Origin: Desulfurobacterium pacificum
GTDB taxonomy: Bacteria; Aquificota; Aquificia; Desulfurobacteriales; Desulfurobacteriaceae
Length of the DNA: 64,000 nucleotides
Direction: 5' to 3'
Assembly: GCF_900182835.1 (NCBI RefSeq)
Contig: NZ_FXUB01000001.1
Coordinates: forward strand, 557,954-621,953
Part shown: positions 6,283 through 56,695 of the stretch, in pieces
Layout: each line of letters opens with the position of its first letter
Numbering within the stretch: the first letter of the stretch is position 1
The notes under the pieces: generated by a model
Database searches by the model: none
Told to the model about the DNA's origin: nothing
What the model saw: only the letters and a program-made list of their open reading frames with translations
Program-made: the position numbers and the translations under genes

Positions 6283-7044
6283 ATGGACATAGCTACCCTT
6301 ATAGGTATAGGCGGTGCGTTACTTCTCATAATTATCTCAATTGTCATAGGCGGAAGTCCCGGCGCTTTCATCAACATTCCCTCTCTCCTCATTACGGTCG
6401 GCGGTGGTATAACTGCTGGAATGGCCGGCTTTCCATTGGGAGAGTTCATCGGTGGCTTAAAGGCAATGCTGAAAGCGATTCAACCTGGCATGCCTGACCC
6501 TTTAGAAACCGTTGATTTTCTGTCCGAAATAGCGAAAAAAGCAAGGAAAGAGGGGATTTTAGCTCTTGAAGCCGATATTGATTCTTTCTACGCAAGAGAC
6601 CCCTTCTTCGGCGACGTCATGAGAATGCTCATAGATGGTCTTGAAATAGAAGAAATACGCAGTACCGCAGAAAGCTCCATGGCACAGATAGACCAAAAAC
6701 TATCAACGGAAGTCTCTGTATGGGAAGCTTTAGGTGACCTGTTTCCAGCGTTCGGTATGATAGGAACGCTAATAGGTTTGATTCAGATGCTTCAAAACCT
6801 GTCAGACCCATCAGCACTTGGTCCCGGCATGGCAGTAGCTATGATTACAACCCTTTACGGTGCTATATTAGCCAATACGCTCTGTATTCCGATATCCAAG
6901 AAACTCAAATACTACAAAGACTTACGTCTTCTTTACCTTGAAGCCTACATACTTACTGCAGAAGCAATAGAAAAAGGTTTAAACCCAAATATACTCAAGC
7001 AAAAACTTGCTGGACTCTTAGGAGTGGAAGTGAAAGAGGGTTAA
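6283..7044 (+). CDS. motA: Flagellar motor stator protein MotA/PomA.
   Basis: Four-TM MotA/TolQ/ExbB proton-channel pattern, followed by two motB genes. Confidence 0.85.
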   Translation: MDIATLIGIGGALLLIIISIVIGGSPGAFINIPSLLITVGGGITAGMAGFPLGEFIGGLKAMLKAIQPGMPDPLETVDFLSEIAKKARKEGILALEADIDSFYARDPFFGDVMRMLIDGLEIEEIRSTAESSMAQIDQKLSTEVSVWEALGDLFPAFGMIGTLIGLIQMLQNLSDPSALGPGMAVAMITTLYGAILANTLCIPISKKLKYYKDLRLLYLEAYILTAEAIEKGLNPNILKQKLAGLLGVEVKEG

Positions 7045-7047
7045 TGA

Positions 7048-7749
7048 ATGGCAAGGAAGAAAAAGGAGGAGTGCAAAGCTCCTCCAGCGTGGCTCACCAG
7101 CTTTGGCGACCTCATGTCTCTGCTCTTAACGTTCTTCATTCTCCTTTATTCCATGTCAACAATATCCCTTGAAAAGTTCTACCAGGCTCTAAAAGGAATA
7201 ATACAGGCATTCGGGGGGCATTACGTCATTTACGAAAACAGAGTCGTCAGCGGAAAAAACGTTCCAATAGAATTCCCCAATATGTACCCCAAGATACCAT
7301 CAAGAAGACAGATAGAAAGCAAACTTCAGGAAATAAGGAGTATGCTTCAAAAAGCGGGTATAAAAACAGAAATAGCAAAGTTCGGAACAAGTATAAGGCT
7401 AAGGATAAACACAGACAAAATATTTCCGCCCGGAAGTGACAGACCCTACCCTCAGGCAATTCCTCTAATCATGGAACTCTGTAAAAAGCTGAAGGAGTTA
7501 GACTTACCGATAACCATTGAAGGACACACAGACAGCACTCCAATACATACAAAACGATTCCCTTCAAACTGGGAACTATCTGCCGCAAGAGCAACAACTG
7601 TTCTAAGGTTATTCATGCAATGCGGCTATGACCCTAATAAACTATCAGCAGCAGGATGTGGACAATACAGACCTATTGCCCCAAATACAACTCCTGAAGG
7701 CAGAGCAAAAAACAGACGGATAGAGATAGTAATACACTTACCTATGTAA
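7048..7749 (+). CDS. motB: Flagellar motor protein MotB, paralog 1 (OmpA-like C-terminal domain).
   Basis: PAWLTSFGDLMSLLLTFFILL plug and TM region with a conserved Asp, plus an OmpA-like peptidoglycan-binding C-terminus. Confidence 0.85.
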   Translation: MARKKKEECKAPPAWLTSFGDLMSLLLTFFILLYSMSTISLEKFYQALKGIIQAFGGHYVIYENRVVSGKNVPIEFPNMYPKIPSRRQIESKLQEIRSMLQKAGIKTEIAKFGTSIRLRINTDKIFPPGSDRPYPQAIPLIMELCKKLKELDLPITIEGHTDSTPIHTKRFPSNWELSAARATTVLRLFMQCGYDPNKLSAAGCGQYRPIAPNTTPEGRAKNRRIEIVIHLPM

Positions 7750-7759
7750 CGGTGAAAAA

Positions 7760-8506
7760 ATGGCAAGGAAAAAGAAGGAAGAATGTAAATCAGTCCCGGC
7801 GTGGCTCACCAGCTTCAGCGACCTTATGTCACTTCTTTTAACGTTTTTCATTCTCCTTTACTCTATGAGTACACTTGATATAACGAAAGCTATGAAATTC
7901 CTGTCCTACTTCCAGGGTGAAAAAGCAAAAACCTTTGAAAAAATATCCATAGTTAAACCAATCCGTATATACACAACCGATGTAGCCAAAAAGATTAAAA
8001 AGATAATTCAAAGAATCCTTCCCGTTTACGGTTACCAGATAGTAGTTACAGAAGACTACGTAATGGTAAGACTATTCAACAAAATACTATTTAAGAAAAA
8101 CTCCTTTCAACTTACACCGGAAGCAAAAAAGGCATTAGACGAGATAGCAAAAATAATCAAATCGCTTCCCGATTGTCAGATAAAAGTTGTAGGACATACA
8201 AGCGAAAACGAACCTACAAAAATCCTCCCCGGCATCCAAGATAGCTGGGACCTCTCAATAAGAAGGGCTACAACAGTAGCAAGGTACTTAGCGTCAAAAG
8301 GCGTTCCTCCTAATAGGATAGAAGCTGTAGGTTACGACTACACAAGACCTCTATATACATGGAAAAATCCCCTCCTCCAAGCCCGCAACCGCAGAGTTGA
8401 AATATACATCTACGTTGCCCAACCGCGAAAGGAGAAAAAGGTAGAAGTTAAGAGAAAAGAAAAACTCCCGACAAAAGAAAAAGAAAAAGAAAGCAAAACT
8501 AAATAA
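7760..8506 (+). CDS. motB: Flagellar motor protein MotB, paralog 2, with a K/E-rich C-terminal tail.
   Basis: Its N-terminus (MARKKKEECKSVPAWLTSFSDLMSLLLTFFILLYSMST) is nearly identical to that of paralog 1. The C-terminal domain is OmpA-like. Confidence 0.85.
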   Translation: MARKKKEECKSVPAWLTSFSDLMSLLLTFFILLYSMSTLDITKAMKFLSYFQGEKAKTFEKISIVKPIRIYTTDVAKKIKKIIQRILPVYGYQIVVTEDYVMVRLFNKILFKKNSFQLTPEAKKALDEIAKIIKSLPDCQIKVVGHTSENEPTKILPGIQDSWDLSIRRATTVARYLASKGVPPNRIEAVGYDYTRPLYTWKNPLLQARNRRVEIYIYVAQPRKEKKVEVKRKEKLPTKEKEKESKTK

Positions 8507-8583
8507 ATTAAATTTTGATTTTAAAAGGATATTTTGATAAATTTCTTCTTAAGAACTGTTTCAAACCATCTCAGGAGGGAGGC

Positions 8584-9318
8584 ATGAAAAAATCACTAAT
8601 TATCCTTTCTATTCTCAGTCTTATCCCCCTTACAGCAAAAGCAGAAGGAATTAAAGTATCTACATCCGTAGGAGTACAACAGGAACTCTTCAGAGGTTGG
8701 GTACAGTATAAAGGAACAAAAATAGACGTTAAAGACGACCTGCAAATAAAAGACAAGAACAAATTCACCGGATGCATAGATTTCAAAATACCAGGAAAAC
8801 TTCCAAACGTGAGAATAGAATACTTAAACGTCAAAAGCTCAGGTACAGGAACAATCTCAAAATCCATTACATTTGGCGGCGTAACTTTCAACGTTAGCGA
8901 TACAATTAATACCAGATTTAAAGCAGACCAGATAGACGCAACTTTCTACTACACACCTCTAAAAGGAACTCTGCAAGCAAACGTAGGTGCAGGAGTTAAA
9001 TATCTGACAGGCTACGTTGATATCAAAAGTCTTAAAACAGGAACTTATTCCGATACAAATTTTGATATCCCCGTACCTTACGTGTTTGCAGAAACAACTA
9101 TAAAACAGAACCTATTCTTCGGCTCCTTTTCAATTAAAGGAGTTGCATATTCCGGCAATTACTTTTACGACTGGAACCTAAAAAGCGGAGTAAGTTACAA
9201 AAACTTTTTCGCCGACTTGGGTTATAGATATCAAAAACTGCATATAGACGATATAGAAGACTTCTCAAGCGATTTAAAAATAAAAGGAATTTACGGAGAG
9301 ATAGGAATAAGATTCTAA
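8584..9318 (+). CDS. Outer-membrane beta-barrel protein with a signal peptide, function unknown.
   Basis: Signal peptide MKKSLIILSILSLIPLTAKA, alternating amphipathic beta-strands and a C-terminal aromatic residue (GIRF). The ORF-track start at 8515 is probably too early. Confidence 0.6.
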   Translation: MKKSLIILSILSLIPLTAKAEGIKVSTSVGVQQELFRGWVQYKGTKIDVKDDLQIKDKNKFTGCIDFKIPGKLPNVRIEYLNVKSSGTGTISKSITFGGVTFNVSDTINTRFKADQIDATFYYTPLKGTLQANVGAGVKYLTGYVDIKSLKTGTYSDTNFDIPVPYVFAETTIKQNLFFGSFSIKGVAYSGNYFYDWNLKSGVSYKNFFADLGYRYQKLHIDDIEDFSSDLKIKGIYGEIGIRF

Positions 9319-9358
9319 ATAAAAATGGAAGCTGGCAGAAAGGTTTTCTGCCAGCTAA

Positions 9359-10282
9359 TTAACGAATAATTTTAACGAAGTAGTAAGTTTGAACACCATT
9401 AGAAGGTTTAAGGTCTACTTCTTCATAAGCTTTATACGTAAAGTTTAACCTACTGCCGTGCTGTGCAGGAGCAAGTAAAATGTCACGACCGATAGTAATT
9501 CCTACCCTGTTATCCTTCAAGTGACCAAAGTAATACTTCCTTAACGAAGGATGTTTGGCAGCTTCAGAAGCATCTATTCCATAAACAAAACCATCAGGAT
9601 AAGCTAAAACCCAGCAGTGATAACCTTTAACTTCACCGCTTCCATTTACAGGTAAGCCTATCTGAAACCTGGCAGGAATTCCTGCTGCTCTACAAAGGGC
9701 GATAAATAGAGAATGAAAATCGGTGCAGTTACCCCTTTTCGCATCGCAAGCCCATATCGCATCACCTCTTCCCCAGCCTTTTCCGGATTTATCATACTTC
9801 ATATGAGAAACCACGTAGTTGTATATCGCTTTCAATTTTTCAACGTCAGTCTTTTTACCGGCAGTTATCCTTTCTGCAAGAACTTTAAACTTATCAACAG
9901 GAACCAACCTGTCCGGAAGTAGATACCTCAAAGGCGGTTTGGAAGTCAATTTTTCAGGTTTTACTTCCTCTCTCTCTACGAGCAATTTAACGGTAATCCT
10001 TGTAGGTTCTTTTAGAGGTCCTTCATGCCTTATATAGATAAACCTATCGCCGTATTCCGACTCTTTGAGAAGCTGAAAAGAGTATGGGGAAACAACTTCC
10101 ATCCTTTCTATCTTTTGCCACCTGTTCTCGTAAGGCACAGGAATCCAGACTTCCACCAATTTGGCTTTCGGTTGAGGCTTTAAATCAACAACTTCTTTCA
10201 ACTCATAAAGCGCCGCGTTAGCGTTTTGAGTTAGCAAAACTAAAGCTCCAATTAGCGCGCTGAAAAATCCTCTCATCATCAT
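9359..10282 (-). CDS. Secreted transglutaminase-like cysteine protease domain protein.
   Basis: GNCTDFHSLFIALCRAAGIPARF transglutaminase core with Cys, a signal peptide MMMRGFFSALIGALVLLTQNANA, and GGAGG upstream of the ATG at 10282. It is translationally coupled to the upstream molybdoenzyme gene. Confidence 0.7.
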   Translation of the reverse strand: MMMRGFFSALIGALVLLTQNANAALYELKEVVDLKPQPKAKLVEVWIPVPYENRWQKIERMEVVSPYSFQLLKESEYGDRFIYIRHEGPLKEPTRITVKLLVEREEVKPEKLTSKPPLRYLLPDRLVPVDKFKVLAERITAGKKTDVEKLKAIYNYVVSHMKYDKSGKGWGRGDAIWACDAKRGNCTDFHSLFIALCRAAGIPARFQIGLPVNGSGEVKGYHCWVLAYPDGFVYGIDASEAAKHPSLRKYYFGHLKDNRVGITIGRDILLAPAQHGSRLNFTYKAYEEVDLKPSNGVQTYYFVKIIR

Positions 10283-10289
10283 TCGCCTC

Positions 10290-13200
10290 CTAAACTTTCT
10301 CAATCTTAACTCTTGTGCTGCTGAAGTCGGGAATACCGCTGAACGTTTCAAGAAGCGGCAGGTTGTAGAACTCAGAATCAAGGTAGGTTAAAGCATTTAC
10401 GGGAATTCCTACTTTTCTTCTTTCATCTGGAACTATCCAGCCATCCTCTCCAACTACCTTGTTACCCCCTAAAAGAACCTCCCTTCCGTTTTCAACAAAA
10501 AAGGCAGATGCACCGTGCTGCCAGTGCCCAAAGTGGTGGGAATAGGCTACAACTCCAGGTCTCACAAGTTCCGTAACTTTAACGGTGGTTATAAACCCCT
10601 TTCTATTTGAAGATGAAGTTACCCTTACCCTATCACCATCTCTGAGGTTGAGAGCAGCGGCGTCGGTGGGGTGGATTTTTAAGGAAAAGTCAGGCTCATA
10701 GACAAGTGCCTGTCTGTAACAGATAGTTCTTGATTGAGTGTGAAGGGCAGATTTGTAAGAGATAAGGTTAAATCGGAACTCGCTCTGAGGTTTATCAACA
10801 CGATTACCACGGTAGTCTGTAGCCCTTACGTATTTAAGAGTTCCCCACAATTTCTTTCCCGTTAGAGAATCGGTTGAAGTCCCCAGCTTCTCGTTCCACA
10901 CACATATCTCTTTAACCTTAGACTCAAAATTACCGTTCTCATCAAACAAAACCCTGTCAGATTTAAAAACGCCTCCTTTCAAAAGGACGGTGCATACTTT
11001 TCGCCATTCCTTTCCACTTAAAACGTCCTTGTGCTTGGCAACGGGATAATTCTTTTCCACTTCTTCTAACTCTTTTTCTGAAGCATCTTCTACGCCGGCA
11101 TTAAAGGCAAGATTAGCTATACCTCTCAAGTAATAATCCTCGGCTTTTTTAAGAGGGTAGAACTTACCGTTCTTACCCGGAATGGCGTTATCACCGTATC
11201 CCGGCAGGTTCAAATAACGAGACACATCTATAATAAACGTTTCCATAGAGTAAGGATTCCCCTCTTTCGTCTTCCCCACTAACGGTTCAACTGCTGGCGT
11301 TCTTACGGCAGTGAAATAACCACCAGGTGCGTGCGGCGTCAAAAATCCGTAGTGTCCTTCAAGATAAGTAACATCAGGAACTATGTAATCTGCATAAATG
11401 TTCGTTTCATTTATTGTGGTATCAATAGAAATAAACAGAGGAACCTTATCTTGGTTTTTCAGTGTTTCAATAAAGCGCATCCCTCCCGGCATGCTGTAAA
11501 TAAAATCCGAAAAATAAGCAATCAGAACTTTTATGGGGTAGGGATACTGCTGGTCTATCCCGGAAATAGCTGCCACAGAAAGTCCACCTTTGGTAAACGG
11601 AAACCACGGAAGTTTTGAAGGATAACCGTGTTTTTTAAACTCAGAAGTCTTCTCGTAAGCAAACTTCTCCCTTGAAATCTTAACGCCTTTAGGCTTCAGC
11701 TTCCCGTTAAAATCTTTAAGGTCGTAAAGTCCTCTCTGCCAGTTAGCAGCCCCTTTTCCTTTTCCTAAATACCCTCCCTTTCTGCAAACGTTACCCACTA
11801 ATGCGTTAAGCATAGCTATGGCGTAACTTGCGTAAGTTCCACCAACATAGTTACCGCCTCCGTGATAGGCAAACGCCACTGAATAAGGTGCATACTCCCA
11901 GAACTCTTTTGCAACTTCCTTTATAACGCTTTCCGGTATTCCCGATTCATCTGCATAGAAAGAAAGTTGATACTCAAAAACGCTGTCCTTCATAAGCCTA
12001 AACGCAGTCTTAACCTTAAAACCGTTAACTTCACCTTCCCACTCAAGCTCTCCTTTTTCTGCAGATGCATAAGGAACAACTTTCCCCTTTACACTATCGT
12101 AAACAGCAGGCTTACCATTAATTCTCAGAAATTCACCTATTCTTTCTCCTTCAGCTATAACGAGATGCGTAGCGTTAGTGTAAACGTTCCTTCCATACTC
12201 TTTAGCAACTTTTAAAGAAGGAATAGAAAGAAATTCTCTATCAAACCAGCCATTCTCAAGCATTACTCTTATCATTCCCATAGCCAAAGCGCCGTCTTTA
12301 GTAGGCTTAATAGGAAGCCACCTGTGAGCGTGAGCAACTGCTTTAGGCGCTCTCGGGTCAACGATAACGACCTTAAGCTCTCCCGCATTCACCCGCCGTG
12401 CTATTATCCCACCAGACGTGTTTACACCCGGCTGCTGAGCTGAGTAAAGGTTTGAACCAAATATCAACATATATTTTGAGTTCCAGTAATCAGCTTTAAA
12501 CTCCACTTCCTTACCGTCAGAAAAGGCGTAGTTGCCCATTCTAAAGCCGATACCGCATATATCCGTATGAGATATGTAATTTACAGTTCCAACCGAGTTG
12601 TAAAGCCACCTTTTTATAAAATGACTTCTCCCCGCCTGTGAACGACCGATAAACCATACCAATTGGTTTCTTACTGTTCCTAATTCAGGTGCGCTCTCAT
12701 TTATAAGCTCGTCAGATAGAACGTCTTTTATCCCCGGATAGTATCGGTTATCACCAATCTCTTTAAACAGGTATCCTCCCTCACTTACCTCTTTTATCAA
12801 CTGTTCCCAACTTATCGGTTTAAACTTCCCTTCGCCGCGTTTACCTATCCTTTTAAGCGGCTGAGTTATCCTGTAAGGGTTATATAGATAATCGTTATCC
12901 ATCTGCGGCTTGGCACAGGTTGAAGCAGAATAGTTAAAACTCTTCCTAACAGGCGTTTCATAAGGAATTTCCCTTCCACAACGATTGTAAGGATGGTATG
13001 GATTACCATCTACTCTTCTGAGTTTACCCTTATCTACCGTTACTCTTAAACCGCATCTTGCATTGCAGGCAAGACAAACGGTATTAACAACTCTTCCACT
13101 ATCTTTTTTTGTTTCTGGCATACCGTAAACGTTCTCTTTAACAGGAAGAGAAACGCTAACAGAATGGAAGAAAGAAAGCTTTCTACGAAGCTCAGGGGAA

Positions 13201-13766
13201 GATTCTAAAAGTTCCTTTAAAGCTCCTTCCGGTTTCAACAGGTTTCCAAATACTAAAGCACCAGACGGACAAACGGCAGCACACCTTGGAACGTCACCTT
13301 TTTTAATAACCCTTTCAGCGCACAGGTCACACTTTTTTGCCTTTCCGTTCACTAAAGTTATTGCACCGTAAGGACAAGCTATAGCACAATTACCGCAACC
13401 AACGCAGAGATTTTCATCTATTGATACAACACCACCTTTTTCCACCCTAATTGCACCGTAACTGCAGGCAGAAACGCAGAAGTGCTCCCTACAATGCTTG
13501 CAGGCATTTTCTCTGTTAAACTCAAGTCTCGGAAATGTATCTTTGATTTCCGCATCTCTGATGAAGAAGAGATTGACTTCAGGAGTTTCGTTCAATTCGT
13601 GTTCCAGCTGACAGGCAGCCATACAGGCTTTACAGCCTATACATCTATTTTTATCGTAAATCAAAACAGGATAAAACTTCTCAGTTTCTTTACCCTTAGC
13701 TATCTTAATTGGCGACAGAAGGAGAACGGAAAATCCAGCAACCTTCAAAAAATCCCGCCTTCTCAA
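10290..13766 (-). CDS. TAT-exported fusion protein: a four-cluster 4Fe-4S ferredoxin module (PsrB/DmsB/NrfC-like) followed by a molybdopterin-guanine-dinucleotide oxidoreductase catalytic module (PsrA/TtrA/DmsA-like).
   Basis: Twin-arginine motif MRRRDFLKVAGFSVLL, four Cys-rich ferredoxin motifs (CIGCKACMAAC, CKHCREHFCVSAC, CVGCGNCAIACP, CDLCAERV..CAAVCP), then the CLACNARCG N-terminal FeS motif of MGD enzymes and a long MGD-binding region. 1158 aa. Confidence 0.75.
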   Translation of the reverse strand: MRRRDFLKVAGFSVLLLSPIKIAKGKETEKFYPVLIYDKNRCIGCKACMAACQLEHELNETPEVNLFFIRDAEIKDTFPRLEFNRENACKHCREHFCVSACSYGAIRVEKGGVVSIDENLCVGCGNCAIACPYGAITLVNGKAKKCDLCAERVIKKGDVPRCAAVCPSGALVFGNLLKPEGALKELLESSPELRRKLSFFHSVSVSLPVKENVYGMPETKKDSGRVVNTVCLACNARCGLRVTVDKGKLRRVDGNPYHPYNRCGREIPYETPVRKSFNYSASTCAKPQMDNDYLYNPYRITQPLKRIGKRGEGKFKPISWEQLIKEVSEGGYLFKEIGDNRYYPGIKDVLSDELINESAPELGTVRNQLVWFIGRSQAGRSHFIKRWLYNSVGTVNYISHTDICGIGFRMGNYAFSDGKEVEFKADYWNSKYMLIFGSNLYSAQQPGVNTSGGIIARRVNAGELKVVIVDPRAPKAVAHAHRWLPIKPTKDGALAMGMIRVMLENGWFDREFLSIPSLKVAKEYGRNVYTNATHLVIAEGERIGEFLRINGKPAVYDSVKGKVVPYASAEKGELEWEGEVNGFKVKTAFRLMKDSVFEYQLSFYADESGIPESVIKEVAKEFWEYAPYSVAFAYHGGGNYVGGTYASYAIAMLNALVGNVCRKGGYLGKGKGAANWQRGLYDLKDFNGKLKPKGVKISREKFAYEKTSEFKKHGYPSKLPWFPFTKGGLSVAAISGIDQQYPYPIKVLIAYFSDFIYSMPGGMRFIETLKNQDKVPLFISIDTTINETNIYADYIVPDVTYLEGHYGFLTPHAPGGYFTAVRTPAVEPLVGKTKEGNPYSMETFIIDVSRYLNLPGYGDNAIPGKNGKFYPLKKAEDYYLRGIANLAFNAGVEDASEKELEEVEKNYPVAKHKDVLSGKEWRKVCTVLLKGGVFKSDRVLFDENGNFESKVKEICVWNEKLGTSTDSLTGKKLWGTLKYVRATDYRGNRVDKPQSEFRFNLISYKSALHTQSRTICYRQALVYEPDFSLKIHPTDAAALNLRDGDRVRVTSSSNRKGFITTVKVTELVRPGVVAYSHHFGHWQHGASAFFVENGREVLLGGNKVVGEDGWIVPDERRKVGIPVNALTYLDSEFYNLPLLETFSGIPDFSSTRVKIEKV

Positions 13767-13888
13767 TTCAAACCTCCTTATTTTAGTATGACGCTTACAT
13801 TCTACTTATCTATTTTCCAGATAGAAAAAATCAATTTTAAAACACTTCATTATAGAGGGCTTTTTTCGGTAAGATTTAAGAAATACAA

Positions 13889-14080
13889 ATGAAGAGGTCA
13901 GCTATGGAGATAACTCACAAGCTCTGGAAATGCACTGTTTGTGGATACGTTTATAACGTTGACGAAGGAGATGAAGAAAATATGATTCCCCCCGGAACGC
14001 CCTTTGAAGCGCTGCCTGTTGACTGGGTATGTCCAATATGTGGAGCAACAAAGGATAAATTTGAGCCGGTTGACGAATGA
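13889..14080 (+). CDS. rd: Rubredoxin.
   Basis: CTVCGYVY and WVCPICG paired CxxC motifs. An alternative start at the ATG at 13904 (MEITHK) is possible. Confidence 0.85.
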
Positions 14081-15051
14081 AGATTTTAATAATTAGGTTC
14101 TCATCGTTAGGTGATGTAATACTTACTTCCTCTGTATTCTCACCTCTAAAAGAAGTCGGTATTGAGGTTGATTTACTTACGCTGAAACCGTGGGGAGAAA
14201 TCTTTAAAAACGATAATAGGCTATCAAGAGTCATAGAAGTCGGAAAAGAAGAAGTTAAAACTCTTAAAGGTTTAAAAAGGTTAGCTGAAAAATTAAACAA
14301 AAATCAGTATGACTACATATTTGACCTTCACAACACCTTGAGAAGCAGAGCGCTATCTTTTTATCTAAAAGCCAAAGTTTTCCGATATAAAAAATCCTCC
14401 CTCCTGCGTCGCCTCATGCTCGTATTCAAACCTTTCAAATCAAAATGGTTATTCGTTCCTGAGCTTTACGCAAAACCCTTCAGAAAAATCGGTATAGAGA
14501 TAAAAAATCCCCGCCCCTACATCCTCCTATCCCGGCAGGAAATATCAAAAATTTCCCATTTAATCCCTCCAAAACCCTTCATAGCCATTGCACCTGGAGC
14601 AAAGTGGGAAGGGAAAAGATATCCTGTAAAAAATTTCATAGAAATCAGCAAGCTCTTAAATAAAAAAGGATTCAACGTAGCCGTAATCGGCGGCAAAGAA
14701 GACTACCCGTTAGGTAAGGAAATCTCTGAAAACAGCACTGCTGTCAACTTGTGCGGAAAACTAACCTTAAGAGAAAGCCTCACCGTTATCTCACAGGCAA
14801 AAGGTGTAATATCAAACGATTCAGCCGTAGTTCACATGGCAAGAGCAGTCAAAACGCCTGTAGCAGTAATCTTCGGTCCCACCCACCCCGCTTTCGGATT
14901 CGCACCAGCTCCAGACGAAGGAATCGTAATAACGAAAAACCTTCCCTGTTCCCCCTGTTCCCTTCACGGCAAAACAAAGTGCAAAGAAAGAAAGTGCTTT
15001 GACATAAACCCCAAAAAAGTAGTAGAAAATTTCTTGAAAATTTCAGAATAA
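14077..15051 (+). CDS. Glycosyltransferase family 9 (LPS heptosyltransferase-like).
   Basis: [22 protein letters not shown]-terminus and a C-terminal CSPC motif typical of GT9. Confidence 0.75.
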
Positions 15052-25921: not shown

Positions 25922-26254
25922 CTACCGTTTTTGAGCCAGTGCAGTTTGTCTGTGACAGCGGGTGCAGTTGGCTGGATTTTTAGCGCTAAACGCTTTCACC
26001 CCATTATGACAGGCGCCGCAATACTTACCTTGCCATATATCCTGCATAGTAAAGTGGTCTGCTCCAAACTTTTTCTTAAACAGCTTCGGATGGCAGTAAA
26101 AACAGTGTTGGTGCTTTACCTTTACGTGATAAACGTGGCTAAATACCACATCACCTTTAGGTGTTTTAAAAACAAGGTTTTTATTAAGCACTCCACCTTT
26201 AAAACAACCGTAGATAAACAGCGCGGCAGCAGGTAAAAGCAGAAACTTACGCAT
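25922..26254 (-). CDS. Small periplasmic triheme c-type cytochrome (c7/c3-like).
   Basis: Signal peptide plus three CxxCH motifs (CFYCH, CGACH, CTRCH) in 110 aa. Confidence 0.7.
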   Translation of the reverse strand: MRKFLLLPAAALFIYGCFKGGVLNKNLVFKTPKGDVVFSHVYHVKVKHQHCFYCHPKLFKKKFGADHFTMQDIWQGKYCGACHNGVKAFSAKNPANCTRCHRQTALAQKR

Positions 26255-41054: not shown

Positions 41055-44014
41055 CCTGAAGTAATTGTCCAGCCAGAAGAGTTCGTTCCTTTAAAACCGT
41101 TAAAAACGGTTCCCTCTATATGTAAGTTGTCGTCTCCGAACAATTTTCCTCCTATCCCCAAAAGAACAGAAGCGTTCATTCCATATTTTGAGCTGTAGCT
41201 TAGAGAGGAATCAAAGTAAGGTCTCCAGACTCTGACAAAGCTGTTTCTATTCTCAAAGCCAAAGTTAAGCCCCACACCTAACTGATAGAAGCTGTCAGGC
41301 AGAACGTCGGCTGGTTTGTATTCAGATATCTTATCTGCATAAGAGTTAGTATGGTCAGATTCAGCGTATTCGTTAACAGAGAAGAAAAGCCTGAAAAGGT
41401 AATCCGGGTATCCCGAACGAGCTTTATAGGAAAGCTCTGAATAAAGCTCTCTACCTCTTCCCACGTAAACGCCGTCAACAGAGTAATACCTATCAAGGTA
41501 AAAAGAACTGAAAAATCCGTATTTGTTGGTAATAGGAAAGGAATACTCAAAACCGCCGCCGGACTTAAGAGTTGAAAAAGAAGCAATCTCTGAAACATCG
41601 CTCAAAGCGTTCACATAAAGTTTAACTGTTAACTGACTTCCCCTGTAAAAACTCCTGCTACCTTTCAGATAAAATCCCCTCCTCTCTCTACCCCCTGCTC
41701 TAAAGATAGTTACACCGCCAGAAAGCGAAGACTTGTGAAAATATCTCTTTAACCCCACGGCAACGTCAGCAGTTCCTTTTCTTTCTGACAGAACGTTTCC
41801 GCCGTTAAGAGAAAGCAGGTTGTTACTTTCAAAGGTGAAATAGGTATCATCTTCAAAATGCCAGCGCAGTTTAAAGTGCGGAGAAAGGTAGCTAAATCTA
41901 CCGCTCCTGTTAAACGTCAGGTCAGCAGAAAAAACAGAAGCGTAGTTGACAATCAGGTCTCTGAATTGACAGTAAAGCCTGTTATCTTCCCTGTTCTCTT
42001 CAAGACCCTTGTAAGCAACTACAAACGCTTTTCCGAACTTTTCTATCTCCTCAAGGGCTGCAACTCTGTCTCTTACTGGCAATATCTCTAAATACTTTGA
42101 CAATAACCTTTCCATCATATACCTGTCATCTTTGTAAAGAGCAAGAGAAAGTCTCATCCAGGGTTTCAGCTTAAAACTCTTCCTTTTCTGCAGATACTCA
42201 ACTTCTTCGTTCCTTCCGCGGTAAAGCAGGTAAGACAGGTAAATCTCTCTGGCAAAATCAGAATCCAGATAGCGTTTCAAACGAACATAATCTCTTTCAA
42301 ACTTTTCCGGTTGCTCAAAGTAGATAGCCGTGCGTAGATAAGCTTCAACGATATCCCTTCCTCTCTTTCCATTTTCAACTTCTCTCTCTGCCTTTTTAAA
42401 TATCTTAAACCTTAACTTTTTAGCTTCTCCTTCTCTGCCGTAAAGCTCTAAAACGTCCGCTTTTGTAAGCAGAAACGAAAGGCTTCTATCTTTCACAAAA
42501 TTAATGCACCGTAAAGCGTCTTTTCCGTCCTGCAAGAACAGGTATGCAGAAAGGAAATCCTCAGGTATCAGCTTTTCGTAACTTCGGTATTTTTCTAAAA
42601 CAGACTTTAAACCTTTAACGTCCTCTGCTGTAATGAGAAGGGATATGAGCTGGGATATCAGGTCGGGGGATGGGTGGGGGGATTTTTTTATGGCTGAGCG
42701 TATAAGCTTTTCTGCCCTATCAACTTCACCAATTTTTAGAAGAGCGTAAGTATAGATAGAAAAAATATCCGCATTGCTTAACAACTTTTCCCTCTGATTT
42801 TCAGGAAATCTATTGAGAAAATAAACAATATCTTTCCACCTTTTGTGTGAAGAGAGAAAAAACAGATAATAAATGAGAAAACTATCCTTTTTAAACCTTT
42901 TATAACCATCCAAAGCATACTTTGCTGCTAATTCTGGCTTTCTATAGTAAAAATACAGAACAACACGTTCATAATCATCAACACTTCCTTTCCCTTCCAA
43001 AATCAATCTCTCAGAAACTTTTACCGCAGTATCAAAATCACCAAGCGCCCAAGCAAGATTACTCAAGGTTCTCAAATAAGAAGCATCTTTCACCTTTTGC
43101 CATTCTTCCTTTAGAGAATCCAAAGATTTCCCAAACTGCCGCTTCGCAAAATAAATATGAGCAAGAAACAACCTATCTCTCGGATTTAATCCATACTTTT
43201 TTCTTAAAATCTTAAAAACCTCTAACGCCTTCTCCGTCTGTCCTCTATACCAATATATATTCGCTGCCACTCTTAAAGCTTCAGGATTATTACCATATTT
43301 TCTTACCAAGATTTCAGCAGCCTTGTCTGGCTGCCCAGCCACGTTAAACACGTTTATAACTTCTTTGAAACCTACGTTTATCCCCCTTTTAAGCATCAAA
43401 TTTAATGTTTTCATTGCTAAATCAGGTCTATTAAGCGCAAGAGACATTGAATAAAGTTCTCTCAAGTACTCCCACTTATGAAAACCAAAAACTAATTTTT
43501 CAAGTGCTTTTAGAGCAATTTCAGGCTTTCCACTCCAGGTAGCAACTGTTTTTAATCTCTCCCACCACAAATCAGAATTTGGAAACTTCTTTATTCCCAA
43601 AAGAGCTACAGTTAAAGCCTTATCTAACTTTCTATTCCCAAGATAAACGGTATAAAGAACATCCAACACACCGTTACCATGAATAACATTTTTCCTTTTT
43701 TTCTTTATTTTAGATACATCAGTAGGAACAAAAGAGTAGCTCTTAATACCTAAAGCCTTTAAAATACCTATCTTTCTCCTCAATTCCCTGACAGTAGAAG
43801 CAGTTAGAAACCTTACAGTATAGTATCCTTTATCAGTTTTATAAATAAACGCATCTCTCCTTATCTCCTGTGGAAGTTTTCTCAAAAACCCTTCTGCATA
43901 CTTATACGATGGAAACGTCGCTAACTGTATAGAGTAAGTCCCCGCAAAGACCACCTTCGGAAACAAAAGGAAAATCAACAAAACAATCCCCACTCCCCAC
44001 CAGTTACTTCTCAT
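41036..44014 (-). CDS. pelB: PelB-like outer-membrane export protein: signal peptide, SPOR-like domain, a long TPR region and a C-terminal beta-barrel porin.
   Basis: Signal peptide MRSNWWGVGIVLLIFLLFPKVVFA and a SPOR-like stretch (YSIQLATF...YYTVRF). The central region holds many helical TPR-like repeats. The C-terminal ~300 aa shows an alternating beta-strand pattern and ends in ...GYRLWF, a terminal Phe. It lies within a pel gene cluster. Confidence 0.7.
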   Translation of the reverse strand: MRSNWWGVGIVLLIFLLFPKVVFAGTYSIQLATFPSYKYAEGFLRKLPQEIRRDAFIYKTDKGYYTVRFLTASTVRELRRKIGILKALGIKSYSFVPTDVSKIKKKRKNVIHGNGVLDVLYTVYLGNRKLDKALTVALLGIKKFPNSDLWWERLKTVATWSGKPEIALKALEKLVFGFHKWEYLRELYSMSLALNRPDLAMKTLNLMLKRGINVGFKEVINVFNVAGQPDKAAEILVRKYGNNPEALRVAANIYWYRGQTEKALEVFKILRKKYGLNPRDRLFLAHIYFAKRQFGKSLDSLKEEWQKVKDASYLRTLSNLAWALGDFDTAVKVSERLILEGKGSVDDYERVVLYFYYRKPELAAKYALDGYKRFKKDSFLIYYLFFLSSHKRWKDIVYFLNRFPENQREKLLSNADIFSIYTYALLKIGEVDRAEKLIRSAIKKSPHPSPDLISQLISLLITAEDVKGLKSVLEKYRSYEKLIPEDFLSAYLFLQDGKDALRCINFVKDRSLSFLLTKADVLELYGREGEAKKLRFKIFKKAEREVENGKRGRDIVEAYLRTAIYFEQPEKFERDYVRLKRYLDSDFAREIYLSYLLYRGRNEEVEYLQKRKSFKLKPWMRLSLALYKDDRYMMERLLSKYLEILPVRDRVAALEEIEKFGKAFVVAYKGLEENREDNRLYCQFRDLIVNYASVFSADLTFNRSGRFSYLSPHFKLRWHFEDDTYFTFESNNLLSLNGGNVLSERKGTADVAVGLKRYFHKSSLSGGVTIFRAGGRERRGFYLKGSRSFYRGSQLTVKLYVNALSDVSEIASFSTLKSGGGFEYSFPITNKYGFFSSFYLDRYYSVDGVYVGRGRELYSELSYKARSGYPDYLFRLFFSVNEYAESDHTNSYADKISEYKPADVLPDSFYQLGVGLNFGFENRNSFVRVWRPYFDSSLSYSSKYGMNASVLLGIGGKLFGDDNLHIEGTVFNGFKGTNSSGWTITSGYRLWF

Positions 44015-45085
44015 TTAATTTCCTCCAGAAACCCTCTTCAAAAGCATATCAGCAATTCTCAAAGATAGCTTCCTATCGTTAATAGCTCTTGCCACACCTA
44101 AAAAGTAGTTAAGTACGCTGTCATTGTTAGAATATTTATCTAAATTCTCTTCAATAAGCTGAGAGACACTACCATAATCCCTTTTCCATAAAGCTAAGTT
44201 TATACACGTCTTAAGAACATTAAAGGATGGATTCTTTTTCAAGTAAACCTTACAAAATTCTAAAGCTCTATCGTAATCTTTATAAGAAAGCTCAAAATTC
44301 ACCAAAGTTCTAAAATCTTTGAAAGAGAACTCACCTCTATGAAGCAGGTTATAGGCTAATTGTTCAACTGTTCCCTTCTGTTTCAGATATAAAGCTGTTT
44401 TGAATAACTCTTTATCAAAATCTTTCCCAATCTCTCCTTTCCTCATCAAAATCTTTAACGTATCAGCAATCAGCTTTTTATCTCCAGAAGATATAGCAAG
44501 AACCATCAATTGCTTATAGTAATTTTCATCTCCCGTTAATTTCGCAAGTTTTTCACAACTCTTATAAGCCAAGTCCTTAAAGCCAAAGGCAAGAGCTTCC
44601 TCATAAACAAATCTATACGTTTCAATAGAAGGAAACGTCCTCTCATAAGACTCAAGAAACTTACGTATCTCTTTCCTTATTTTCTCTCTTTCCTTATTAT
44701 CCTTTTGGGCAAAATACTCCGATACAAGAATCTTAAAATCTAACTGATAAAGGAATTTTTTCTGCTTTTTATCCCTAATTTTTTCCAAATACTTTTCTAT
44801 AAGTCTATGAGCTTCTTCATACCTTCCTAACTTAACATCCTTCTCTATCAAAAGAGAAAACAACTTAGAATCAAACTTAATATCCAAAAGTTTTTCTAAA
44901 TATAATCTGGAAAGATCAAGGTTATAGTCTTCTTGAGTAAGCAGAATTTCATTCAATCTACCTTTCGGAAACATTACAAAAGCCAGAATCAAAAATAATC
45001 CAACAAAAGCTAACACTTCCCATTTAGAGAATATTTCAACGTTTACAAACTGCTTCCACTGTAACCTTTTTCTTTCTTGCTTCAA
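44015..45085 (-). CDS. Inner-membrane-anchored TPR protein. It is either a split-off N-terminal part of PelB or an accessory TPR protein.
   Basis: One N-terminal TM helix (VLAFVGLFLILAFVMF) followed by TPR-like helical repeats. Its stop directly abuts the start of the pelB-like gene. Confidence 0.55.
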   Translation of the reverse strand: MKQERKRLQWKQFVNVEIFSKWEVLAFVGLFLILAFVMFPKGRLNEILLTQEDYNLDLSRLYLEKLLDIKFDSKLFSLLIEKDVKLGRYEEAHRLIEKYLEKIRDKKQKKFLYQLDFKILVSEYFAQKDNKEREKIRKEIRKFLESYERTFPSIETYRFVYEEALAFGFKDLAYKSCEKLAKLTGDENYYKQLMVLAISSGDKKLIADTLKILMRKGEIGKDFDKELFKTALYLKQKGTVEQLAYNLLHRGEFSFKDFRTLVNFELSYKDYDRALEFCKVYLKKNPSFNVLKTCINLALWKRDYGSVSQLIEENLDKYSNNDSVLNYFLGVARAINDRKLSLRIADMLLKRVSGGN

Positions 45086-47801
45086 CCTCTACCATTCCTC
45101 CTTTCCTTTTCAAATTAACTCCATTACCCACTCTAAGAGAACAGGTATCAGCTACCCGCAAATCTGCCTTCAAAGGTAAAACTTCTGAATGCAGAACTAA
45201 ACGGTAATATCCTCTTTCTACATCTTTCCTAAAATCCTTTACCATACCGTTTGAACTCACCAGAACAAAATCGTTATCATCTCTATTAACAAAAACGATT
45301 CTCCTACATCTACTATCATCTAAAAATACGTAAATCCTGCCGTTTATCCTTCTATAACCAACAACTCCTTGAGATTTATCAATACTTGGTATCCCGCCCT
45401 TCCCCTCCAATCTAACTGTCTTCAAACTACCCGAAGAACAAAAGTACATATTTCCATCCCTATTACTTTCAGCAATACTTGCTCCCCTGAATTCCAAAAC
45501 CCGCTGGGCATATTCAGAGAGAAACATAGGAACAGTTCCTTGTCTCATAGCCCAATCGTAAACTTTCTTTAAAGCGTTGAAAGACAAAGGAAATTGAGCA
45601 GAGTAAAAATGGTAATAGATACTTATAGGCTTTAATCTTCTCGGCTTATCCGTAAGTTTAAACGTTGAAATAACTCTAACGTACCCATCTTTGATTTTCC
45701 AACCTTTCGTATAAACTTCCTCATTTTGAACAGGAGCATAAACTTGAAAAAATTTTCCCTTATTGATACCCATAGGAGAAACTTTACAAAGGTAAGGAAA
45801 AGTATCATCTATAGTTGTATCCCCTCCGTTAACGTTATAAACACCCAACTTATACGTTCTTTCAACAACCGGTGGCGGTGGGGCACAATCACCAGACCAC
45901 AACAACACTTTCGCCTTTTTACCATTAGGAGCAAGATATTTATCTATAAACTCGAGAGAATAATCAATTTCTTTCTTTACACTTGGAACATAACCGGGGA
46001 TAGGAAGATGATAACCATACTTAAGATTTCTCTTATCGGTAGGTTTCAAACCCATACTCATTCTGTAAACATCTATCCAGTTAAAAGGATGAGAATAAGT
46101 ATGACTCGCAGGCTCAACGTTAGGAAGCGAAAAAATACTTTTAGCAACTTCCATCAATTTCTTTGCCTTTTTAGGATAAAGCCCTCGTGGGTCAACTTCT
46201 CCAACTATTACAGAAACAGTATGCGGAACTTTATAAACCTTAAAAATCTTTTCTCTTAAAACTTCACCTACATATTTTCCATATTCCACAAAACTTTTAT
46301 CTGCAAACCCATCTCCATCTAAGTGAACAGTCATTATTCTCCGCCCACTCTCAGTCGTGACGTCAGGCGCAAAAGGCAATCGTCCAAAAACTTCCGAAAA
46401 CAGCCAAAACGGGTCAAAAACCCACAAACTATCGTTAAACATATCTTTAAGCAAGTAACCTGAATAACCGTAGCCGCCCCACGGAGTTATCGCAACAGGA
46501 ATGAACTTTTGACCTACAGAATTCTCTAAAACAAGCAAAGGAGTATATTTCCCTTTAGGATTTACAAAACTATCCGTAGGAAACGGATAGGCTTTAATCT
46601 CAAAACCATAAGTTCTTCCTTTATAAACAATCTTAGGAACTTCTTCGGGCTTTCTGTTGGAAACCAATTCAAAATTTAAGTGTTTTAACTGCTCAGGCGA
46701 AAAAACGCTTAAATCAACAATAAAAACCTTTATTCCTCTTTTCTTAGCTTTTAAAAGTAACTTTATTACTTTATCTTTATTTTTTTTCCCTCGTATATTC
46801 CATACAACAACGCCTTTTACATCGGAAGTTAAACTTTTTTCAGAAAAATCCCCCACACTCACCACCACCGGTTCATATCCCAACCATTCAAGCGGTAATT
46901 GAATTAACCTATGAACATCACTCTCATCAGGAATCTCTAAAGATGAGTCATAAACCAAAAGAATTTTCCTCTTCAAAATATGGAAAACTCCTTCTCCTAC
47001 CTCTGTCAAATTTTTATCAGCAACCCAAGGTATAAACCCCTCTTTTATTAACCTCTTAGCAACTCTCCTCGCCTCCTGTTCTTTATTAGACGGCAGATAG
47101 TCAATCACCACTACAGGTTTTTCTTCTTTTATCTTTTTAAGCTTATCTAACAACCATTGTCTTTCTCTATTTCCCACATCAACGTAATTAAGCTTAGCAT
47201 CTAATCCTTTATAAAGAGATTCAACAACTACCGCATCAATCAAACTTTTGACCTGAGGATAGACATCAAATCCCCTATTAACCATAATAATCTTCTTGGG
47301 ATAATTCCTCCTCAAAGCCTTGATAAACTCAACTTTTCTTCTTTCATAGCTTTTCCATTCCTTCTTAGGAAGAACCATTTGATAAGAATCAAGCGTATCC
47401 AAAAAAATCCCATCGTAACTCTTAAGCAAAGCACTTGCTTTCTTCAACATAAACTCAAAACATTCTTTATTTCTTAGATCAACAACAAAAGATTTCCACG
47501 CTTTATTCTTACCTAAAATCCAGCTTTTCCTAACGTGCTTAAAAAACTTTCTAAAAGGTTCTACCTCGCCCAAGCTAAAGTAAGCTATAAGCTTTCCCCT
47601 CCTTTTAACGTAAAACCTCTCTTTTATCTTTTCTGGAGTAAAAACATCAGGGTCAACAACTATCCAATCGTATGTATACAAAACTTGGTCTGGAGGCTCA
47701 GAATACATAAAAGCAACAGATGGCTTAACGCTTTGCGCAAAAACTTGAAATCCCCACAAAAAACTAAGTGTTAAGCATAAAAGTCCTATAATGAATCTCA
47801 T
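45036..47801 (-). CDS. pelA: PelA-like periplasmic bifunctional protein: an N-terminal GH114/GH166-type glycoside hydrolase and a C-terminal CE4 polysaccharide deacetylase.
   Basis: Signal peptide and a GH114-like TIM-barrel region (IAYFSLGEVE...GIFLDTLDSY...IMVNRGFD). A CE4-like HTYSHP motif and an upstream DGDG sequence are present. At 921 aa it is similar in length to P. aeruginosa PelA (948 aa). Confidence 0.7.
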   Translation of the reverse strand: MRFIIGLLCLTLSFLWGFQVFAQSVKPSVAFMYSEPPDQVLYTYDWIVVDPDVFTPEKIKERFYVKRRGKLIAYFSLGEVEPFRKFFKHVRKSWILGKNKAWKSFVVDLRNKECFEFMLKKASALLKSYDGIFLDTLDSYQMVLPKKEWKSYERRKVEFIKALRRNYPKKIIMVNRGFDVYPQVKSLIDAVVVESLYKGLDAKLNYVDVGNRERQWLLDKLKKIKEEKPVVVIDYLPSNKEQEARRVAKRLIKEGFIPWVADKNLTEVGEGVFHILKRKILLVYDSSLEIPDESDVHRLIQLPLEWLGYEPVVVSVGDFSEKSLTSDVKGVVVWNIRGKKNKDKVIKLLLKAKKRGIKVFIVDLSVFSPEQLKHLNFELVSNRKPEEVPKIVYKGRTYGFEIKAYPFPTDSFVNPKGKYTPLLVLENSVGQKFIPVAITPWGGYGYSGYLLKDMFNDSLWVFDPFWLFSEVFGRLPFAPDVTTESGRRIMTVHLDGDGFADKSFVEYGKYVGEVLREKIFKVYKVPHTVSVIVGEVDPRGLYPKKAKKLMEVAKSIFSLPNVEPASHTYSHPFNWIDVYRMSMGLKPTDKRNLKYGYHLPIPGYVPSVKKEIDYSLEFIDKYLAPNGKKAKVLLWSGDCAPPPPVVERTYKLGVYNVNGGDTTIDDTFPYLCKVSPMGINKGKFFQVYAPVQNEEVYTKGWKIKDGYVRVISTFKLTDKPRRLKPISIYYHFYSAQFPLSFNALKKVYDWAMRQGTVPMFLSEYAQRVLEFRGASIAESNRDGNMYFCSSGSLKTVRLEGKGGIPSIDKSQGVVGYRRINGRIYVFLDDSRCRRIVFVNRDDNDFVLVSSNGMVKDFRKDVERGYYRLVLHSEVLPLKADLRVADTCSLRVGNGVNLKRKGGMVEVEARKKKVTVEAVCKR

Positions 47802-51605: not shown

Positions 51606-51625
51606 ATTTCCCCCTCAAATACCTA

Positions 51626-52891: not shown

Positions 52892-53340
52892 AACGCCTTG
52901 TCAAACAATTCCTGTGTCATTAATCCCAAAGATTTATTTCCCCATTCAGTTGCAGACAGAGAACCTGAAGCCAACTTTTTCCCAGTTTTCAAGTCTTTAA
53001 CAACATATGTAACGCTCACAGCCGGCTCTCCATCTATTCCGACCTTATAACGCCATTCATTTACATATCCACTAATCACGCACCTGTAACCTTCTTTTAT
53101 TAAATCTCCTTTTTCAGCCCCATTAACTAAATCAACGTTGTAGCCCTTAGACTTTAAAACTCCATAAAGAATAGCAGCCACCCTACTACCTGCCAAAGGA
53201 GTTTCACTATAGTTAGTAAAAGGAACCACAGCACAATGAAAACCTTTAAAGTCTTGCCTTTTCGTCTGATTTATCAAAGTAGCACAGCCGCTTAAAACGA
53301 AAGAAAACGCAAATAATCCCCATAAAAGTTTTTTAATCAT
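52888..53340 (-). CDS. pelC: PelC-like outer-membrane lipoprotein.
   Basis: Lipobox LSGC after the signal peptide, about 150 aa, and first gene of the pel-like operon (ATGA overlap with pelD). Confidence 0.6.
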   Translation of the reverse strand: MIKKLLWGLFAFSFVLSGCATLINQTKRQDFKGFHCAVVPFTNYSETPLAGSRVAAILYGVLKSKGYNVDLVNGAEKGDLIKEGYRCVISGYVNEWRYKVGIDGEPAVSVTYVVKDLKTGKKLASGSLSATEWGNKSLGLMTQELFDKAF

Positions 53341-53412
53341 TATTACTCCCCCTTAACAAAGTAATAACGAATTTTAACACTTAATTTATCACAATGAATT
53401 GATATTAGTCAA

Positions 53413-55483: not shown

Positions 55484-55533
55484 CGTTTATTTGGTATCTT
55501 TTTAAAAAACGAAAACTGGCAGGTAATAAATTA

Positions 55534-56598: not shown

Positions 56599-56599
56599 G

Positions 56600-56686
56600 T
56601 GGTGCGGGAGGCGGGATTTGAACCCGCACGCCCGTAAGGGCACCGCCCCCTCAAGACGGCGCGTCTGCCGATTCCGCCACTCCCGC
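56600..56686 (-). tRNA. tRNA-Leu (anticodon GAG).
   Basis: Reverse complement GCGGGAGTGGCGGAATCGGCAGACGCGCCGTCTTGAGGGGGCGG...GGTTCAAATCCCGCCTCCCGCACCA. Anticodon stem CCGTC/GGCGG with loop TTGAGGG. Confidence 0.8.
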
Positions 56687-56695
56687 AATCGGACG

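Follow-up and report, generated by a model that had tools for sequence, protein, structure and literature searches.

A tetrathionate reductase-like iron-sulfur/molybdoenzyme fusion and its transglutaminase-fold partner in Desulfurobacterium pacificum

Desulfurobacterium pacificum (Aquificota; Desulfurobacteriaceae) encodes a single polypeptide of 1158 amino acids in which an iron-sulfur (FeS) module, equivalent to a separate B subunit in related enzymes, precedes a molybdopterin-type catalytic module, equivalent to the A subunit. The gene (‘the fusion’ in short) was studied within a stretch of 64,000 nucleotides of contig NZ_FXUB01000001.1 (assembly GCF_900182835.1, positions 557,954 to 621,953), referred to here as the window. 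On the same strand it is followed by a gene for a secreted transglutaminase-fold protein (‘TG’ in short). The features of the locus are collected in Table 1. An original prediction had described the gene as an FeS–molybdopterin guanine dinucleotide (MGD) enzyme fusion with a twin-arginine translocation (TAT) leader and without a membrane anchor gene nearby, and both the open reading frame and its domains were found as described there.

Table 1 Features of the fusion locus and its surroundings (positions in the window)
Feature	Position	Strand	Remarks
Fusion coding sequence	10290..13766	-	1158 aa, TTG start; TAT leader, four-cluster FeS domain, linker and tetrathionate reductase (Ttr)-like molybdenum/tungsten bis(pyranopterin guanine dinucleotide) (Mo/W-bisPGD) catalytic domain
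Shine-Dalgarno sequence AAGGAGG	13773..13779	-	6 nt 5' of the fusion TTG start; read from the sequence
Twin-arginine (TAT) signal peptide, aa 1-25	13692..13766	-	MRRRDFLKVAGFSVLLLSPIKIAKG; RRDFLK motif
PsrB/NrfC/DsrO-type polyferredoxin domain, aa 36-176	13239..13661	-	16 Cys, four cluster motifs
Linker, aa 177-228	13083..13238	-	About 50 aa; two helices, then a disordered stretch
Catalytic Mo/W-bisPGD domain, aa 229-1158	10293..13082	-	FS0; predicted metal ligand Cys404 in HTDICGIGFRMG; invariant Gly374-Arg375
Transglutaminase-fold periplasmic protein (TG)	9359..10282	-	307 aa; PF01841, 94 bits; Sec signal; second operon gene
Intrinsic terminator-like hairpin	9330..9356	-	12-bp stem, T-rich tail; 3 nt past the TG stop
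Rubredoxin	13889-14080	+	Divergent from the fusion; no signal peptide
GT9 heptosyltransferase	14077-15051	+	Overlapped 4 nt by the rubredoxin gene; odd operon pairing
TIGR04219-family outer-membrane β-barrel protein	8581-9318	+	Converges on TG; not conserved beside the operon elsewhere
c7-type trihaem cytochrome	25922-26254	-	110-aa lipoprotein, three CxxCH; TIGR04257, 74.6 bits; 12 kb from the fusion

The N-terminus of the fusion, MRRRDFLK, matches the twin-arginine consensus, and the TAT-exported FeS proteins NrfC, DsrO and HybA align with it from residue 1-3 onward. The FeS domain carries the ferredoxin motifs C42/45/48/52, C89/92/97/101, C121/124/127/131 and C146/149/162/166, and all of these cysteines except the variable Cys124 (15 of 16) are invariant in 33 fused orthologues. 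It is a four-cluster module of the PsrB/NrfC/DmsB type, which matches the models of NrfC, DsrO, HybA, DmsB and TtrB as well as the PsrB (2vpw_B) and ArrB (6cz7_B) chains. Pfam domains in the fusion were Fer4_11, Molybdop_Fe4S4 (PF04879), Molybdopterin (PF00384) and Molydop_binding (PF01568). By its domains, its FS0 motif (C231-x2-C234-x3-C238...C284) and its predicted metal ligand, Cys404, which aligns with the metal-ligand cysteine of ArrA, the protein is one of the complex iron-sulfur molybdoenzymes (Mo/W-bisPGD, DMSO reductase superfamily). The cysteine ligand, FS0 and the cofactor-binding domains are invariant in the fusion family, and from this the enzyme is predicted to be catalytically competent.

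In the alignment, the linker occupies the place where unfused relatives have the TAT leader of the A subunit. An AlphaFold2 model built from 49 sequences reached a mean predicted local distance difference test score (pLDDT) of 91 and a predicted template modelling score (pTM) of 0.92, and poor definition was confined to linker residues 201-220 (pLDDT 53-66, and <50 at residues 208-213). Given this pTM, the FeS domain is confidently placed in the model, which suggests that it may be docked on the catalytic module in a fixed, native-like way. The solved folds nearest to the model were ArrA (6cz7) and PsrA (2vpw), and the fold search returned no Ttr structure. Linker residues 190-200 (window 13150-13190) contain the sequence ELRRKLSFF, with R/K-x-L-L-K at the same place in orthologues; speculatively, it could be the decayed twin-arginine motif of a former A-subunit leader. 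A search for a Moco riboswitch or another RNA element 5' of the fusion gene found none.

A frameshift or misassembly joining separate B and A genes, which the original prediction had named as a result that would undo it, has a negligible probability. An independent Logan assembly of a sequencing run contains the identical 1158-aa gene with the same neighbours, dozens of orthologues hold one reading frame across a conserved linker, and the internal A-type TAT leader is gone, as a true fusion predicts. Nothing was found to support an artefact, and the sole apparent one belongs to another record. This is a EukProt transcriptome protein of 1641 amino acids (P0103) with TG, Fer4 and MGD domains in the order TG-B-A, in which the internal Sec and TAT leaders are still intact and the junctions are occupied by Gln. 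We rejected it as a three-way fusion, since its most likely source is the TG-B-A operon of a contaminating bacterium, translated with a code that reassigns stop codons, and its bearing on co-transcription is no more than a hint.

Full-length fused orthologues, 51-86% identical to the fusion, form more than 40 clusters in Aquificota, Campylobacterota and Thermodesulfobacteriota. Their hosts are Desulfurobacteriaceae (Thermovibrio, Desulfurobacterium, Phorcysia), Nautilia and several Thermodesulfobacteriota (Thermodesulfatator, Thermosulfuriphilus and others). In neighbour-joining trees of the catalytic domain, the fused forms are monophyletic, and their sister is a large unfused clade from Desulfobacterota, Nitrospirota and others. 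A second fusion (P0049, 1227 aa) is nested inside this unfused clade, so that B and A have been joined at least twice independently. The unfused clade has B directly 5' of A with no C gene between them, and RR motifs are present in 38 of 48 B-size and 51 of 54 A proteins. To join the two genes it was therefore enough to lose a stop codon and the A leader. Two statements of the original prediction, that it is the molybdopterin subunit which bears the TAT signal and that the fusion reverses the usual A-B order, do not hold for this lineage: TtrB and TtrA both have TAT leaders (PMC12949373; Klebsiella plasmid ttrBCA), ttr operons run B-C-A, and B lies directly upstream of A in the sister clade. 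In the Thermosulfurimonas members of the fused clade (loci L015, L017 and L021; proteins P0044-P0047) the FeS module is down to two of the four Cys motifs, and the electron wire appears to be eroding there. Fused orthologues are already in the databases under generic names, and no fused family with a defined function was found to which the protein is orthologous. Our searches of the open-access literature returned no description of a B-A fusion or of a transglutaminase-fold partner of Ttr-like enzymes. What appears to be new here is thus the description of the fusion and of its partner, since family members as such, and Ttr homologues without an anchor, were known.

The fusion and TG form a two-gene operon in D. 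pacificum, because the ribosome-binding site of TG (AGGAGG) overlaps the TAG stop of the fusion and a terminator follows TG. TG starts with the ATG at 10282, 7 nt past that stop, and a TTG at 10381, given as its start in a mechanical list of open reading frames, is probably unused. The secreted TG-like gene described in the original prediction as translationally coupled downstream is thus tightly coupled, although the two genes do not overlap. TG belongs to the transglutaminase-like superfamily, with a PF01841 core and an invariant Cys186-His222-Asp237 triad; Cys179 and Cys223 are likewise invariant, and Cys223 directly follows the catalytic His. The sequence of TG agrees at 100% identity with the D. 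pacificum protein P0121. Its AlphaFold2 model (pLDDT 94) is a β-sandwich with a transglutaminase core. Among solved folds it comes closest to the uncharacterised ‘putative cysteine protease’ 3isr, and TgpA is also matched; a sequence search of solved structures and a fold search gave no functional lead beyond such putative cysteine proteases and TgpA. Nothing relevant was found in the open-access library that joins transglutaminase-like proteins to Ttr or molybdopterin oxidoreductases.

To describe the gene context, we collected 80 related loci from species-representative genomes, called their open reading frames and clustered all neighbours. B and the TG-like gene were the only genes conserved beside A. 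Of the 58 loci whose flanks each extend for 1.3 kb or more, 45 have a same-strand TG-like gene no further than 2.5 kb away (upstream of B in 25, downstream of A in 20), and in the fused clade it was adjacent in 17 of 18 loci. In a neighbour-joining tree without support values, which compared the TG-like genes of loci L009, L015, L017 and L021 with those of the window and L001-L014, the fused clade's partners fell into two groups of paralogues, of which one is nearest to the stand-alone TG of Acidobacteria and Planctomycetes. By this tree, Desulfurobacteriaceae and Thermodesulfatator would have another TG paralogue than Nautiliaceae, Thermosulfurimonas and the unfused clade. If correct, one paralogue has replaced the other while the partnership lasted, and this would speak for function over accident. 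Nautiliaceae TG has a TAT leader in place of the Sec leader. By this distribution, TG is a conserved, and probably functional, partner of the fusion enzyme.

The absence of a nearby membrane anchor gene was borne out. There is no NrfD/TtrC-type gene in the 64-kb window, where the sole protein with 12 transmembrane helices, and the sole polytopic one of fitting size, is PelG. With TtrC and the Citrobacter C subunit as queries, tblastn found nothing in the window and no match at any of the 80 loci. Members of both the fused and the unfused clade are without a quinol-oxidising C subunit at their loci, a C-terminal helix is missing from the stand-alone B proteins of the unfused clade, and Ttr homologues lacking TtrC have been reported independently (PMC9751629; PMC13490349). 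Because the hydrophobic stretch of the leader is below the length that scores as a transmembrane helix, and so too short to serve as an anchor, the fusion is expected to be soluble in the periplasm.

Alternatively, the fusion may not be soluble and may dock on a quinol dehydrogenase of the NrfD type whose gene lies elsewhere in the genome, e.g., one shared with another complex, so that electrons would enter in the conventional way. FeS domains of the NrfC/DsrO/HybA/PsrB type normally sit on NrfD-like subunits, 64 kb of the genome were inspected, and Nautilia sp. PV-1, which has a fused orthologue (P0021), also carries a separate canonical PsrABC (PMC10092268). This arrangement nevertheless seems unlikely: the lack of an NrfD-type gene near any of the 80 loci, across several phyla, speaks against an obligate dedicated partner, and a self-contained soluble unit would agree with the recurrent B-A fusion and the loss of C. 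A soluble periplasmic reductase, as originally suggested, is still the most plausible reading. The electron-entry route need not be unusual, as had been proposed, since anchorless periplasmic AB-type molybdoenzymes fed by shared carriers have precedent in ArrAB and FdhAB. The trihaem lipoprotein encoded 12 kb away is evidence that small periplasmic multihaem carriers are present that could feed anchorless reductases, with no specific tie to the fusion. The rubredoxin, which the original prediction had mentioned, is indeed encoded divergently from the fusion. It gives no clue to electron entry and was rejected as electron donor: the 4-nt overlap places it in the heptosyltransferase operon, it has no signal peptide, and it is found at none of the 80 related loci.

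The top NCBIfam match of the catalytic domain was by far TtrA with 530 bits, against 183 for PhsA and 169 for ArrA, and the fusion falls below all three cut-offs (TtrA NF011567, curated at equivalog level, 1750 bits; PhsA, 694; ArrA, 1600). It is 48-51% identical to its unfused relatives, 34.7% to the B-C-A enzyme of the Citrobacter arsenatis arsenic island and 32.1% to TtrA of the Klebsiella plasmid ttrRSBCA locus. The latter two plasmid loci served as references, and both enzymes are outgroups to the fusion family in the neighbour-joining trees. According to a 2026 study, true Ttr is marked by ttrBCA order, TAT leaders on TtrA and TtrB and a nine-helix TtrC, and a Gly-Arg pair (ArrA R165) is kept in arsenic-metabolising relatives and absent from true TtrA (PMC12949373). 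The aligned position reads Asn-Thr in true TtrA, SGR in the Citrobacter arsenatis enzyme and invariantly IGR (Gly374-Arg375) in the fusion family; the pair lies 29 residues from the Cys ligand in the fusion and 28 in the Citrobacter arsenatis enzyme and ArrA. From this spacing and the Citrobacter intermediate, rather than from a structural superposition, we infer that R375 corresponds to ArrA R165; HMMER alignments to ArrA in the PDB sequence searches never spanned ArrA residues 103-132. The ligand motif of the family, HTDIC404GIGFRMG, parallels that of ArrA (SHSSVCAEAHKMG), such that Gly-Arg with H400/T401/C404/R409 of the fusion parallels R165/H189/S190/C193/K198 of ArrA. By these residues, the active site appears to retain an oxyanion-type pocket. 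In the same alignment, ArrA Y166 and Y210 are replaced by Ser376 and an invariant Glu422.

These data bear on whether the protein could be a bona fide tetrathionate reductase (S4O6 2- to 2 S2O3 2-) in which TtrB was merely fused to TtrA and TtrC was lost. Its best family match, its B-to-A order and the TAT leader on B are hallmarks of Ttr, and the fused orthologue of T. dismutans (TDIS_0362) was placed as a tetrathionate reductase, from phylogeny alone (PMC4911364). We consider this quite unlikely, as the fusion falls outside true Ttr by every criterion applied, i.e., the sequence match (530 bits against 1750, and 32% identity to a ttrBCA-encoded TtrA), the B-C-A order with a quinol-oxidising TtrC, the two TAT leaders, and the Gly-Arg pair whose absence marks true TtrA; moreover, TtrA falls in the outgroup. 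The phylogenetic placement and the metal ligand, which had been named as checks, thus came out as a Ttr-like catalytic domain in what appears to be a distinct related clade, with Cys404 as the predicted ligand. The MOLY cluster (MolyABC) of sulfur disproportionators, in which a PhsA-related A subunit is accompanied by MolyC, a TorD/DmsD-like chaperone encoded next to it, does not fit either: the catalytic domain is Ttr-like and not Phs-like, and no third gene but TG is conserved, MolyA being set apart here by its description only.

The same active site raises the question of a Ttr-like respiratory arsenate reductase that, in the manner of ArrAB, would be soluble, periplasmic and supplied by a shared cytochrome. 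The Gly-Arg pair and the H400/T401/C404/R409 pattern parallel ArrA, which is also the nearest solved fold and is likewise anchorless, and the identity to the Citrobacter arsenatis enzyme slightly exceeds that to TtrA. An unfused member is carried by Seleniivibrio woodruffii, an organism that respires arsenate and selenate. The tyrosines Y166 and Y210 of ArrA are nonetheless replaced, with the ArrA model the fusion reaches 169 of the 1600 bits required, and the Gly-Arg motif may be merely ancestral. Among the marks of Ttr-like arsenate reductases, the fusion has the Gly-Arg motif, but not the clade position, for which the Citrobacter enzyme alone was compared and sequences from Anaeromyxobacter and Pyrobaculum were not, nor the ars neighbourhood, as ars genes lie near the cluster at just one of the 80 loci. 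The accessory neighbours, sporadic and present at some loci, relate to sulfur or thiols; they are a rhodanese of the periplasm, a TusA-MerT fusion, and a thioredoxin that comes with a thiol-reductant transporter of the DsbD family. Arsenate reduction is, on this evidence, a rather improbable function.

The Citrobacter arsenatis reference deserves a remark of its own. Its Ttr-like B-C-A cluster (plasmid NZ_CP037863.1, locus L081, 5019-9823) lies within an arsRDABC island and is annotated merely as ‘DsrO / hypothetical / molybdopterin-dependent oxidoreductase’. This arsenic-island cluster is carried by conjugative plasmids of the IncF type in Citrobacter, Salmonella, Enterobacter and E. coli, and is probably a mobile Ttr-like arsenate reductase.

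Taken together, we hypothesize, with a probability of roughly 60%, that the fusion is a soluble periplasmic Ttr-like B-A enzyme that is fed by soluble carriers and reduces inorganic sulfur species (arsenate being less likely), with TG as its partner. The folded, cofactor-loaded protein would cross the membrane by means of its single N-terminal TAT leader. In the periplasm, the distal FeS cluster would receive electrons not from a dedicated membrane subunit but from a donor that is soluble or shared, candidates being small multihaem cytochromes, such as the c7-type protein, or a periplasmic hydrogenase. The electrons would then travel through the four clusters and FS0 as far as the metal centre ligated by Cys404, where an anionic substrate would be reduced. 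Host physiology and accessory genes make us lean towards polysulfide, thiosulfate or polythionates, with arsenate less likely: the family occurs in organisms that reduce sulfur and thiosulfate, disproportionate sulfur or reduce sulfate.

The contribution of TG to the proposed reaction is more speculative, and we have low confidence in it. TG could act as a thiol-based carrier or activator of sulfane sulfur, its activated thiolate opening S-S bonds and passing sulfane sulfur to the metal site, as Sud does with polysulfide reductase. In its strongest form, the fusion and TG would constitute an unrecognised quinone-independent periplasmic sulfur-compound reductase, in which the Cys186 thiolate, flanked by Cys179 and Cys223, opens the S-S bonds of S8, polysulfide or polythionates and presents protein-bound sulfane sulfur to the molybdenum site. 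We regard this specific version as improbable. If true, it would make the enzyme a terminal reductase for sulfur or thiosulfate in the Desulfurobacteriaceae with the fusion, and a component of sulfur disproportionation in Thermodesulfobacteriota and Desulfobacterota.

Several observations weigh against the proposed soluble sulfur-compound reductase. All members of the fused clade are known as sequences, and the trees are neighbour-joining trees without support values. An anchor or a dedicated cytochrome may be encoded elsewhere in the genome, beyond the 64 kb inspected. The Gly-Arg signature, known from arsenic-metabolising relatives, does not favour sulfur, and may keep arsenate or another oxyanion in play. 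As for the partner, 13 of the 58 loci with full flanks have no same-strand TG within 2.5 kb, several of them in a Nitrospirota and Geobacter subclade. Close TG homologues (42-49% identity) stand alone, with no molybdoenzyme nearby, in both genomes checked for this (Planctomycetota; Candidatus Sulfotelmatobacter), so that the TG family has a function independent of the fusion enzyme. Lastly, the published proteome tables of D. thermolithotrophum HR11 contain no orthologue. Because HR11 reduces thiosulfate, the enzyme is not universally needed for sulfur-compound reduction in the genus, and it is probably accessory rather than universal.

A few features lie around the operon or further away in the window. 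In three Desulfurobacteriaceae loci (L001, L003, L022), a gene for an OprO/P-type porin is located between the fusion and TG. At 6283-8506 (+) of the window, a MotA/PomA stator gene precedes a tandem of two MotB-type paralogues whose N-termini are near-identical (MARKKKEECK...), which looks like a duplicated stator B subunit. A stretch at about 42000-58000 has a GC content of 0.35-0.38, compared with 0.41-0.44 elsewhere, and contains an exopolysaccharide cluster including PelG (47764-49137); the stretch may be an island gained by horizontal transfer.

In vent thermophiles and sulfur disproportionators, Ttr-like molybdoenzymes routinely receive the annotation of tetrathionate reductase, and recent papers emphasise that many fall outside true Ttr. 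Homology alone is accordingly no ground for naming such genes ttrA or arsenate reductase. The locus described here marks a coherent and widespread sub-family that has no quinol-oxidising subunit, has fused B and A at least twice and has a transglutaminase-fold partner. Sulfur-compound reduction in vent bacteria is poorly understood, and the fusion is one candidate for it. As an expressible two-gene unit, it offers a concrete target for studying this process in Desulfurobacteriaceae and their relatives, as well as for the question of which molybdoenzymes act in sulfur disproportionation.

Among the known systems, TtrBCA of Salmonella enterica and Shewanella sp. ANA-3 is the best family match. 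It shares with the fusion the FeS part before the catalytic part, a TAT leader on the FeS part, the Cys metal ligand, and FS0 with four FeS clusters. Unlike TtrBCA, the fusion lacks TtrC, unites B and A in one polypeptide with a single TAT leader, has a TG partner gene and the Gly-Arg motif, and stands in a separate clade. Also comparable are the TtrAB-type clusters without TtrC (PMC9751629, PMC13490349) of Desulfoluna spongiiphila, Desulfobulbus propionicus, Caldimicrobium thiodismutans and Dissulfuribacter thermophilus, where B and A are likewise adjacent. The D. spongiiphila locus (L058) falls within the unfused sister clade. In these clusters, however, B and A are separate proteins, each with a TAT leader, and a TG-like neighbour is unmentioned in those reports. 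The AB pair of D. thermophilus was more abundant on sulfite/H2 (PMC9751629, PMC13490349); its cluster includes 8- and 10-helix transmembrane protein genes and is likened to the fusion clade by description only.

ArrAB of Shewanella sp. ANA-3 (6cz7) provides the closest solved fold and is similarly an anchorless periplasmic AB enzyme with a shared cytochrome donor and a Gly-Arg, His, Ser/Thr, Cys, Lys/Arg active-site pattern. It differs in that A precedes B, the two are separate proteins and A bears the TAT leader; the Foldseek-aligned identity is about 19%, the ArrA model score is far below its cut-off, and the fusion family is without the arsenic gene context. The PsrABC enzymes and Sud of Thermus thermophilus and Wolinella succinogenes have the same cofactor chain, and Sud is a precedent for a periplasmic Cys protein that delivers sulfane sulfur. 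PsrABC is membrane-bound through PsrC, ordered A-B-C and distant from the fusion, as the PhsA model score indicates, and Sud is of the rhodanese type and not of the transglutaminase fold. Finally, ActB of alternative complex III also combines MGD-like and FeS modules in one TAT-exported polypeptide, in the opposite order with the A-like part first, and QrcB contains the MGD-like module only. Both are parts of membrane complexes and have lost the metal cofactor ligands, being non-catalytic, whereas the fusion keeps all catalytic motifs.

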